Virus record (IMG/VR): IMGVR_UViG_2541047861_000014
DNA: 37,035 nucleotides
From: a virus
Lineage: Duplodnaviria; Heunggongvirae; Uroviricota; Caudoviricetes
Reading direction: 5' to 3' (one strand)
In this document: positions 3,016-4,232 of the stretch, one piece after another
Numbering within the stretch: position 1 is the first letter of the stretch
Layout of the letters: the number at the start of each line of letters is the position of its first letter
Program-made: the position numbers and the translations under genes
Notes under the pieces: model-generated
The model's input: the letters and a program-made list of their open reading frames with translations, nothing else
Told to the model about the DNA's origin: nothing
The model's database searches: none

Positions 3016-3230
3016 CTGCTCTCCAATGACTAGTCTAAAAACTAGTATTAAGACTATCACTTAAATAAGTGATATTGGTTGTCTGGAGATTCAGGGGGCC
3101 AGTCTATTTACCACCAAATGTTTTTGATACTATAGGTTGATTCATGATTTACCTAGAAACTTAGTTGTAACGAAAACTTCTTAACGGACACTATCTGGAT
3201 AAAGTTAGTTTTTTATTTAAGAGGGTTAAC

Positions 3231-3950
3231 ATGTCAAAGTTAAAAAATGAACCATTAGTAAGGGTATCAGAAGAAGACGGAATAGAAATAAGGAAGATCC
3301 AATATCCAGATAATACGATAGAAAGAGTTTATAAGCAGAAAGGTGTAATATTACCACGAATACCTTTAAAAGGCCGCTTTGTAGAACAATATGTGGCCTT
3401 ACAGTTGCTGGATAAAGATCTTCGGAATGTTATTGGTTGGGAGAATATAATAAAAAACATTTGTAATAACATTAATAGAGAACAACACTTTATTTATCCT
3501 GATTTAGAAAAGAATCTAATATTAAAGTCTTTATTTATATCAAAAGTTGTTACTTACGGTAAGTGTTTTACAGAGGCGAAAGGGCGTCGATTCACATTGC
3601 AGAGAAAGCATGTGCCAGAAAAATACAGAGATTTACATGATTCTATTATGAATGTTAGACATAACTTTGCTGCCCATAAAGGTGAATTTGAATATGATCA
3701 ATGTGGCTTGGTTTTAATATTGCCGGGGACCAAGAAAAAAAGGTGCTATCATATTTTTTCAGAACTCAATCAAATAAATTATGGTAATAATGAGGAAGAT
3801 GATGAACGTTTTTTTATGTTATATGATTCACTGCGTAAAGTCATTAAAGAAAAACGAGATAAATTAATTGATAAAATATACGCTGAAAAGATTCATACTC
3901 AAACAATGGAGTATTGGTTGAGCCGAACAGGAAAAGAAACAGAGATTTAA
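3231..3950 (+). CDS. Uncharacterised AT-rich cargo protein (239 aa) in the int-xis hotspot; candidate defence / abortive-infection gene
   Basis: Clean ORF with RBS AGAGGG ~7 nt upstream of ATG; visibly AT-rich codon usage unlike flanking phage genes; lysine-rich, no obvious TM segment; contains R143-x5-H149 (VRHNFAAHKGE), which fits the Rx4-6H HEPN pattern. I recognise no family. Confidence 0.7.
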   Translation: MSKLKNEPLVRVSEEDGIEIRKIQYPDNTIERVYKQKGVILPRIPLKGRFVEQYVALQLLDKDLRNVIGWENIIKNICNNINREQHFIYPDLEKNLILKSLFISKVVTYGKCFTEAKGRRFTLQRKHVPEKYRDLHDSIMNVRHNFAAHKGEFEYDQCGLVLILPGTKKKRCYHIFSELNQINYGNNEEDDERFFMLYDSLRKVIKEKRDKLIDKIYAEKIHTQTMEYWLSRTGKETEI

Positions 3951-4232
3951 TTTGTTCAGTATATAAAAGCTAATTTTTAAGGAGTAATTTTCAGATGATT
4001 AAAGCTGATTACATTGCGATAGGTACTCTACGACTAACTTTTCAACAAGAGTAAGGGGGTAATCAATTTTATTTGTATCAATGGTATGACATTTCTTGGC
4101 GATAATGTTTTGATCTTATCGATTCATGTCATATGGTCATTGGTAACGTCCGCTCTTGTTAAAGAGTGGACGCTCAGATTTGGTTTGGCATCTAATCATA
4201 GATGTGTCAGCTCACATCTAAGCTAATACATA

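Follow-up and report, generated by a model that had tools for sequence, protein, structure and literature searches.

What is the function of a gene of low guanine-cytosine (GC) content that lies between the integrase (int) and the excisionase (xis) gene of an Escherichia coli prophage? The question is raised by the IMG/VR virus record IMGVR_UViG_2541047861_000014, a stretch of 37,035 nucleotides of tailed-phage DNA (the window), in which the block at 3107–4232 carries a gene for a protein of 239 amino acids (aa), called the cargo gene in the following. We find that this is a real gene under purifying selection that is carried by mobile elements. It is probably the founding E. coli member of phrog_8440 as a new HEPN-like family of mobile-element cargo. 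The further-reaching interpretation, i.e. a functional, horizontally exchanged cargo gene that encodes a HEPN-like ribonuclease (RNase) acting as an abortive-infection effector, is tentative, and in its full mechanistic form we give it slightly less than an even chance. The gene and its key elements are located as follows:

3231–3950, plus strand: cargo gene, 239 aa, ATG start, phrog_8440 family
3219–3225, plus strand: Shine-Dalgarno sequence AAGAGGG, kept in the homologue locus L037
3657–3677, plus strand: codons of R143-H144-N-F-A-A-H149 (R143 at 3657–3659, H149 at 3675–3677), the putative catalytic Rx5H motif of HEPN type, where helix 3 ends

The block had originally been described as strikingly AT-rich, with a 239-aa open reading frame (ORF) behind a good ribosome-binding site, and both descriptions are borne out. 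Its GC content of 0.318 is the minimum of 719 sliding 1126-bp windows over the 37-kb stretch (median 0.511), and only this block reaches a value of 0.33 or below. For the ratio of nonsynonymous to synonymous substitution rates (dN/dS), comparison with orthologues whose amino-acid identity is 85% and 75% gave 0.12 and 0.11, respectively; within E. coli we obtained 0.06–0.20. Values around 0.1 show that purifying selection acts on the cargo gene.

Single-sequence searches of Pfam, NCBIfam, PADLOC and the PDB sequences gave no informative match for the window protein. PADLOC-DB 2.0.0 returned 0 matches for it and no recurrent family among 87 diverse aligned members, and the family profile found no match among the PDB sequences. 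In PHROGs, instead, the protein matches phrog_8440 (“unknown function”) over its full length with E=1.6e-144, and all of the 87 members (87/87) belong to this family. A word-indexed protein search returned 25 clusters, all from Enterobacteriaceae, while an exhaustive profile search extended the family to 924 clusters at 50% identity (E<=1e-3; 397 at E<=1e-10), nearly all of them single-domain proteins of 220–260 aa. The original prediction of an orphan without a recognisable family is thus correct for the curated libraries and wrong otherwise, since the gene belongs to a large uncharacterised family. Source names of the members read “hypothetical protein” throughout, the searchable literature makes no mention of either WP_000040219 or phrog_8440, and the GTDB representative genomes yielded one locus only.

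The pair R143 and H149 had been singled out before as a possible HEPN motif, with the caution that a motif this short can occur by chance. It is present as described, and its conservation speaks against chance. Among 154 full-length representatives of the 50%-identity clusters, to which all conservation counts refer, R143 is kept in 154/154 and H149 in 153/154, with a spacer of five residues in 147/154. Directly after R143 stands H in 95 representatives, N in 55 and D in 4, without exception. A148 and G151 are conserved to 97%, and RHNFAAHKG is invariant across an alignment of 22 sequences. Further invariant positions are Y109, R119 and H136 (154/154 each) and D63 (152/154); position 111 is always K or R. 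Since H136 precedes R143 by seven residues in the same helix, helical periodicity would place both on one helix face. Two other readings of the conserved residues were rejected: a phospholipase D (PLD)-type HxK motif, since K150 varies and is S in most members, and an HD domain, as no sequence or fold search gave an HD-domain match.

The structure was predicted with AlphaFold2 from the 22-sequence alignment (predicted local distance difference test score, pLDDT, 86.5; predicted template modelling score, pTM, 0.75) and from the 87-sequence alignment (pLDDT 93.6, pTM 0.85), with identical topology. The predicted elements are, in residues:

9–15, 18–24, 30–36: strands of an N-terminal three-stranded beta unit
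49–79, 92–111, 130–147, 188–221: helices of a four-helix bundle
83–88: short helix
112–129: loop of 18 residues that carries the invariant R119, counted as HEPN-conforming
157–163 / 174–180: beta hairpin inserted after the motif

Both models place R143 within the final turn of the third core helix and H149 in the loop just beyond, which is, as modelled, the canonical HEPN position. The predicted bundle is a four-helix up-down arrangement of two alpha-hairpins, as in the HEPN core. The motif in turn has the HEPN form, i.e. Rx4-6H, a polar N, D or H after the arginine and a location at the end of helix 3.

Other results leave HEPN membership short of proof. Helix 92–111 contains no conserved acidic residue, such that the Ex3[KR] feature of HEPN helix 2 is absent; the invariant acidic residue D63 sits in helix 1. 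This helix-2 residue occurs in many but not all HEPN families and is optional (PMC3710099). In the fold searches generic bundles, including ligand-binding chemoreceptor domains, scored level with HEPN proteins, and Foldseek against the PDB and BFVD found nothing significant. The structural check suggested together with the original prediction therefore returned a four-helix bundle with high confidence but no HEPN-specific match. Significant profile similarity to an established HEPN family was not reached, and none of the 87 members passed any Pfam threshold.

What profile signal exists is confined to the motif. At permissive E-values HEPN_AbiU2 (PF18734) was the only family matched by more than 2 of the 87 members (5 members, best E=0.015). 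When concatenated members were scanned and the coordinates mapped back, positions 113–145 (of 193) of the AbiU2 profile fell, in six different members, always onto residues 130–160 of the window protein, which form the H136...R143-x5-H149 helix. Taken singly, every member and every consensus sequence stayed below the AbiU2 gathering cut-off of 26.8 bits. A score of 26.5 bits does not count because it is a sum over concatenated members, and the matches are not independent because the members are homologous. The A1 consensus matched HEPN_Swt1 on the motif segment (E=0.44). Against Pfam, consensus sequences of the family and sub-clade hidden Markov models did not raise the AbiU2 signal (E=0.62). 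As a calibration, the proven HEPN RNase Tha-1 of phage 80alpha obtains only a HepT-like match of E=0.029 from the same library. From motif, topology and weak profile evidence together we consider it likely that the cargo protein belongs to the HEPN superfamily. The original HEPN reading thus holds for motif and topology, but not at the level of significant homology or of a specific fold match.

The location of the gene provides the second line of evidence. It is flanked by the following features:

386–1609, plus strand: tyrosine integrase, 407 aa, encoded by the prophage that occupies the yjjG attachment site; upstream of the cargo gene and on the same strand
3951–4232, no strand: AT-rich spacer, 282 bp, GC 0.34, separating the cargo gene from xis, the two being convergent
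4233–4427, minus strand: xis-like helix-turn-helix (HTH) protein, 64 aa, reads towards the cargo gene and bounds the cargo slot on the other side

The convergence with xis agrees with the original description; the xis-like protein matches HTH_17 with E=1.4e-4, under the Pfam cut-off. Among 5426 complete E. coli genomes the cargo block is found in 71, in each case on the chromosome, within a prophage that lies downstream of yjjG, whereas the integrase is found in 700 (13%). The temperate Escherichia phage 2H10 (Glaedevirus) carries an identical block in the same arrangement, with int and the ORF reading towards a convergent xis. Ten other sampled prophages with the same integrase have in this slot, located at about 4800–7000 in each of the loci L055–L064, nine other occupants and in one case the family again:

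CHAT-domain protein, 710 aa
dGTPase-family protein with an HTH gene
“ATP-binding protein”, 595 aa
DUF4365 protein
three single hypothetical proteins of 342, 271 and 413 aa
two pairs of hypothetical proteins
a phrog_8440 member again, in one sampled prophage

The int-xis slot of this lambdoid (Glaedevirus / CPS-53-like) prophage is thereby well supported as a hypervariable cargo slot. The gene has the features of a moron in a hotspot, namely deviating composition, a position at the element edge, presence or absence with alternative occupants and an upstream region of its own, and the claim of horizontally acquired cargo is upheld. dGTPases are an established anti-phage defence, and the slot at yjjG could be an undescribed lambdoid defence hotspot.

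A survey of int-proximal homologues had been suggested together with the original prediction, and members of the family do recur next to integrases elsewhere, with different partners. In P2/186-like prophages of Enterobacter, Citrobacter and Yersinia, members at 37–45% identity directly follow the integrase gene, in two cases overlapping its stop codon by 17–20 nt; in the locus L003 tRNA genes follow about 220 bp after the member. In lysogens of P2-type phages int is transcribed together with the repressor gene, and by analogy the P2-like homologues are therefore probably expressed during lysogeny. More distant members are located on three conjugative elements and, in one case, after a serine resolvase fragment. 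In Acinetobacter baumannii the member is the last gene of a tight same-strand cassette of four genes (368, 149, 220 and 244 aa), whose three other products have no Pfam match. This cassette could be a multi-gene system with the same effector; it lies at 5773–8735 of L022, and likewise in L023 and L024, between a TetR gene and moeA. Throughout the contexts examined no neighbour is conserved. In 15 of 17 loci the family gene is 8–19 GC points below its surroundings.

At some prophage ends a member comes after tail-fibre genes and a umuDC-like pair. In three of these loci a conserved segment separates the umuC-like gene from the member (L014, about 2700–2860; L039, about 5760–5900; L042, about 5850–5960). 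It contains three TTTYACCAT direct repeats, which may be arm-type integrase sites, a hairpin and a reverse-complemented 3' half of a tRNA; no full tRNA was found near it. The segment is probably a remnant of an attachment (att) site that marks tandem elements. Because of this att-like remnant the member may lie either inside or outside the prophage, and a second intra-prophage slot of the order tail fibre, umuDC, cargo was not upheld. In the umuDC context a 258-aa TIR_2 protein (E=1.3e-26; L043, 8226–8999, minus strand) adjoins a member at the prophage end. On a small integrative element, a 1255-aa SIR2_2 protein, an Nmad2 gene and an HTH-Fic pair stand beside a member (L018, 9425–13192, plus strand).

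How does the family compare to known systems? The nearest named sequence family is AbiU2 (PF18734; Lactococcus AbiU), which is listed as an Abi-type HEPN family with a conserved Rx4-6H. It shares with phrog_8440 a four-helix bundle in which helix 3 ends with the motif R-[N/H/D]-x-x-x-(x)-H; the sequence likeness is sub-threshold and spans about 30 residues only. phrog_8440 differs from AbiU2 by its x5 spacer, the N-terminal beta unit, the hairpin after the motif and the invariant Y109, R119, H136 and D63. Furthermore, AbiU consists of two genes (abiU1, abiU2) whereas the cargo gene stands alone. With respect to canonical HEPN proteins the beta unit, the hairpin and the four extra invariant residues are additions, and the acidic residue of helix 2 is missing. 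A hairpin after the motif has been noted for Csx1, and some HEPN families carry a strongly conserved extra histidine N-terminal to the motif (PMC3710099). The HEPN variants AbiV/AF0298 have a second conserved histidine, as does phrog_8440 with H136 two helical turns before R143. In these variants, however, the canonical H is missing and the extra histidine comes from an insert between helices 2 and 3, while here both histidines are present and H136 belongs to helix 3. HepT/HEPN toxins (PDB 7ae2) and an integron-cassette HEPN protein (PDB 3jrt) align at 6–10% identity, with scores no better than those of unrelated bundles. Due to its beta elements the cargo protein is about 100 residues longer than the HepT/HEPN toxins, and no nucleotidyltransferase (MNT) neighbours a member in any of the contexts examined.

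Functionally, the nearest counterpart is Tha from Staphylococcus aureus prophages, a single 301-aa HEPN protein encoded beside int and convergent with a gene that was labelled xis and is in fact its inhibitor, ith (PMC11087260). Tail proteins of an infecting phage switch Tha on, and it then degrades RNA non-specifically; experiments have shown its RNase activity, its trigger and its inhibitor (PMC11087260). Unlike the cargo protein, it carries an Rx4H motif near the C-terminus and an unstructured N-terminal region. Its gene overlaps ith; the cargo ORF is instead separated from xis by 282 bp, and no neighbour is conserved alongside the members of its family. Homology to Tha was rejected, with a probability of 0.25% in hhalign against Tha-1. 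The lambdoid slot behaves like the int-proximal hotspots of P2-like phages, P4 satellites and phage-inducible chromosomal islands (PICIs) (bioRxiv 10.64898/2026.02.27.708500). That study, with experiments on P4 loci, makes no mention of phrog_8440 or of the lambdoid int-xis slot at yjjG.

In the mechanism we propose, the cargo protein would be made in the lysogen and held inactive. Infection by another phage would activate it, with the beta unit as candidate sensor. The activated protein, probably dimeric and with a composite active site, would cleave RNA without the need for metal, and its action would arrest the infected cell in the manner of abortive-infection defence. For the cargo protein we infer HEPN membership, RNase activity, trigger and defence role, and a role as single-gene abortive-infection effector is plausible from location and analogy. 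A wider version of the proposal is possible but doubtful. In it phrog_8440 would be an unrecognised, widespread (>900 clusters) and partnerless defence family, in which a HEPN-like RNase is fused to a new beta-sheet sensor and has an extended active site (H136, R143 and H149 plus Y109, R119 and D63). It would be swapped among int-proximal slots, conjugative elements and the Acinetobacter cassette, with the yjjG slot as an undescribed defence hotspot.

The protein may alternatively be a non-catalytic helical bundle that benefits the lysogen in another way, e.g. by binding a phage or host protein so as to exclude superinfecting phages, or as a regulator, with R143 and H149 serving in ligand or protein binding or, together with H136, Y109, R119 and D63, in a non-HEPN site. 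The equal fold scores of chemoreceptor-type ligand-binding bundles, the four invariant residues outside the HEPN definition and the lack of a significant HEPN profile match are all in agreement with this. Yet the weak matches of two separate HEPN Pfam families sit exactly on the motif segment, and we regard a non-catalytic role as unlikely. A catalytic HEPN protein could also be a toxin that stabilises its mobile element by addiction, for which the antitoxin would be an unrecognised small protein or an antisense RNA from the spacer. Many HEPN proteins are indeed toxins of toxin-antitoxin pairs (PMC3710099), the family is always on integrative or conjugative elements beside recombinases, and the E. 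coli block always comes with the 282-bp spacer and its 19-aa ORF (3995–4054) behind a strong TAAGGAG site. But no neighbouring gene is conserved across contexts, in P2-like prophages an att site or tRNA directly follows the gene, homologues elsewhere do not share the downstream spacer, and neither an MNT-type partner in the contexts examined nor an Rfam RNA was found. A toxin is on these grounds rather improbable.

The conjugative elements point in yet another direction. Their members lie near genes for single-stranded DNA-binding proteins (SSB), a Cas4-like nuclease and primase/relaxase functions, a neighbourhood that can be likened to the leading regions of conjugative elements, which carry anti-defence genes. 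With the family present on very different element types, it could be an anti-defence or establishment factor, e.g. an RNase or binding protein that disables host immunity. The prophage members, however, are in a slot on the lysogeny side together with the integrase, whose other occupants are of defence type (dGTPase family, CHAT). The overlap with the int stop codon in P2-like prophages, from which lysogenic co-transcription is probable, also fits expression in the lysogen and not early infection, such that an anti-defence role appears decidedly improbable. An accessory factor for integration or excision, finally, is hardly credible. It would account for the position directly downstream of two tyrosine integrase families and of a serine resolvase fragment. 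But the gene is present in only about 10% of the prophages with this integrase, with unrelated genes in the others, its recombinase partners elsewhere are unrelated or missing (Acinetobacter cassette, cargo regions of conjugative elements), and the functional phage family already has xis.

If the HEPN-like effector reading is confirmed, an unannotated family that Proteobacteria carry on prophages, conjugative elements and genomic islets gains a function, and the defence repertoire gains another single-gene HEPN effector. A HEPN-like gene in a prophage hotspot will not surprise the specialist; the family is large and wholly unannotated. The one-gene slot, with its dGTPase-family and CHAT-domain proteins and at least five sets of unknowns, is a compact hunting ground for anti-phage genes. 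Knock-outs and challenge experiments can be made easily, as the identical gene is present in 2H10, an inducible temperate phage.

The upstream region of the cargo gene is interrupted in this strain by an insertion sequence (IS):

1740–1775, plus strand: left half of a conserved upstream stretch (about -155 to -120 before the IS2 insertion), cut off from the gene by IS2
1776–3106, minus strand: IS2, IS3 family, 1331 bp, strain-specific insertion
2650–3060 and 1787–2692, minus strand: IS2 orfA and orfB
3112–3153, plus strand: other, right-hand half of the conserved stretch (about -119 to -78), still joined to the gene

A 5-bp target duplication, TTTAC, flanks IS2 (1771–1775 and 3107–3111). Because IS2 ends at 3106, the left boundary originally given for the block is simply the IS2 edge. 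Pairwise alignment of an IS-less E. coli locus (L001, used as reference) with L037, a homologue locus that has the gene in a different context, revealed a conserved stretch of about 80 nt upstream of the gene (about -155 to -78). As it is conserved across contexts, the gene appears to bring its own upstream region along. IS2 does adjoin the gene as originally noted, but it is not a neutral neighbour, having inserted at -119 within this stretch. Since the conserved region is split, expression in this strain may be altered; loss, retention and transcription from IS2 are all conceivable. Among the matches listed only 2 E. coli copies contain IS2 and most are IS-less. Independent insertions are seen elsewhere: strain DETEC-S792 has IS1B within the block, and RM10425-C1 has an IS3-family element beside the slot. 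One of the loci concerned is L061 (6757–7970). The AT-rich slot looks like a recurrent IS target.

Some copies of the gene itself may be damaged. Alignments by tblastn are broken for two otherwise nearly identical copies, in the IMG/VR prophage contigs L040 and L041 (718-nt match; 65% in the best segment), which suggests frameshifted, possibly pseudogenised copies in some prophages. Allele swapping at L041, where the same integrase seemed to accompany a 65%-identical allele, was rejected because the DNA identity is 99.6%, and the 65% figure is for this reason a frameshift or indel artefact.

All E. coli copies of the gene are accompanied by the spacer, which is not shared by homologues in other contexts. 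The spacer contains a 19-aa ORF, MIKADYIAIGTLRLTFQQE, with its ribosome-binding site 10 nt upstream, and a hydrophobic 46-aa ORF at 4086–4226, neither of which was found beside homologues in other contexts. Scans of 3000–4500 gave no sigma-70 consensus on the plus strand, no terminator and no Rfam match. Just beyond the xis stop codon, at 4199–4220, there is a perfect 8-bp hairpin.

The integrase gene (386–1609, plus strand) reads inward from attL and is convergent with xis and the early-left genes (4233–8659, minus strand). In lambda int and xis are on one strand, whereas here two convergent units enclose the cargo slot. The 64-aa xis-like ORF is left without annotation by RefSeq in several genomes that carry the prophage (L001, L015–L017), and the adjoining DUF551 gene (4427–5047 in the window) appears as fragmented pseudogenes in the annotation of some strains.
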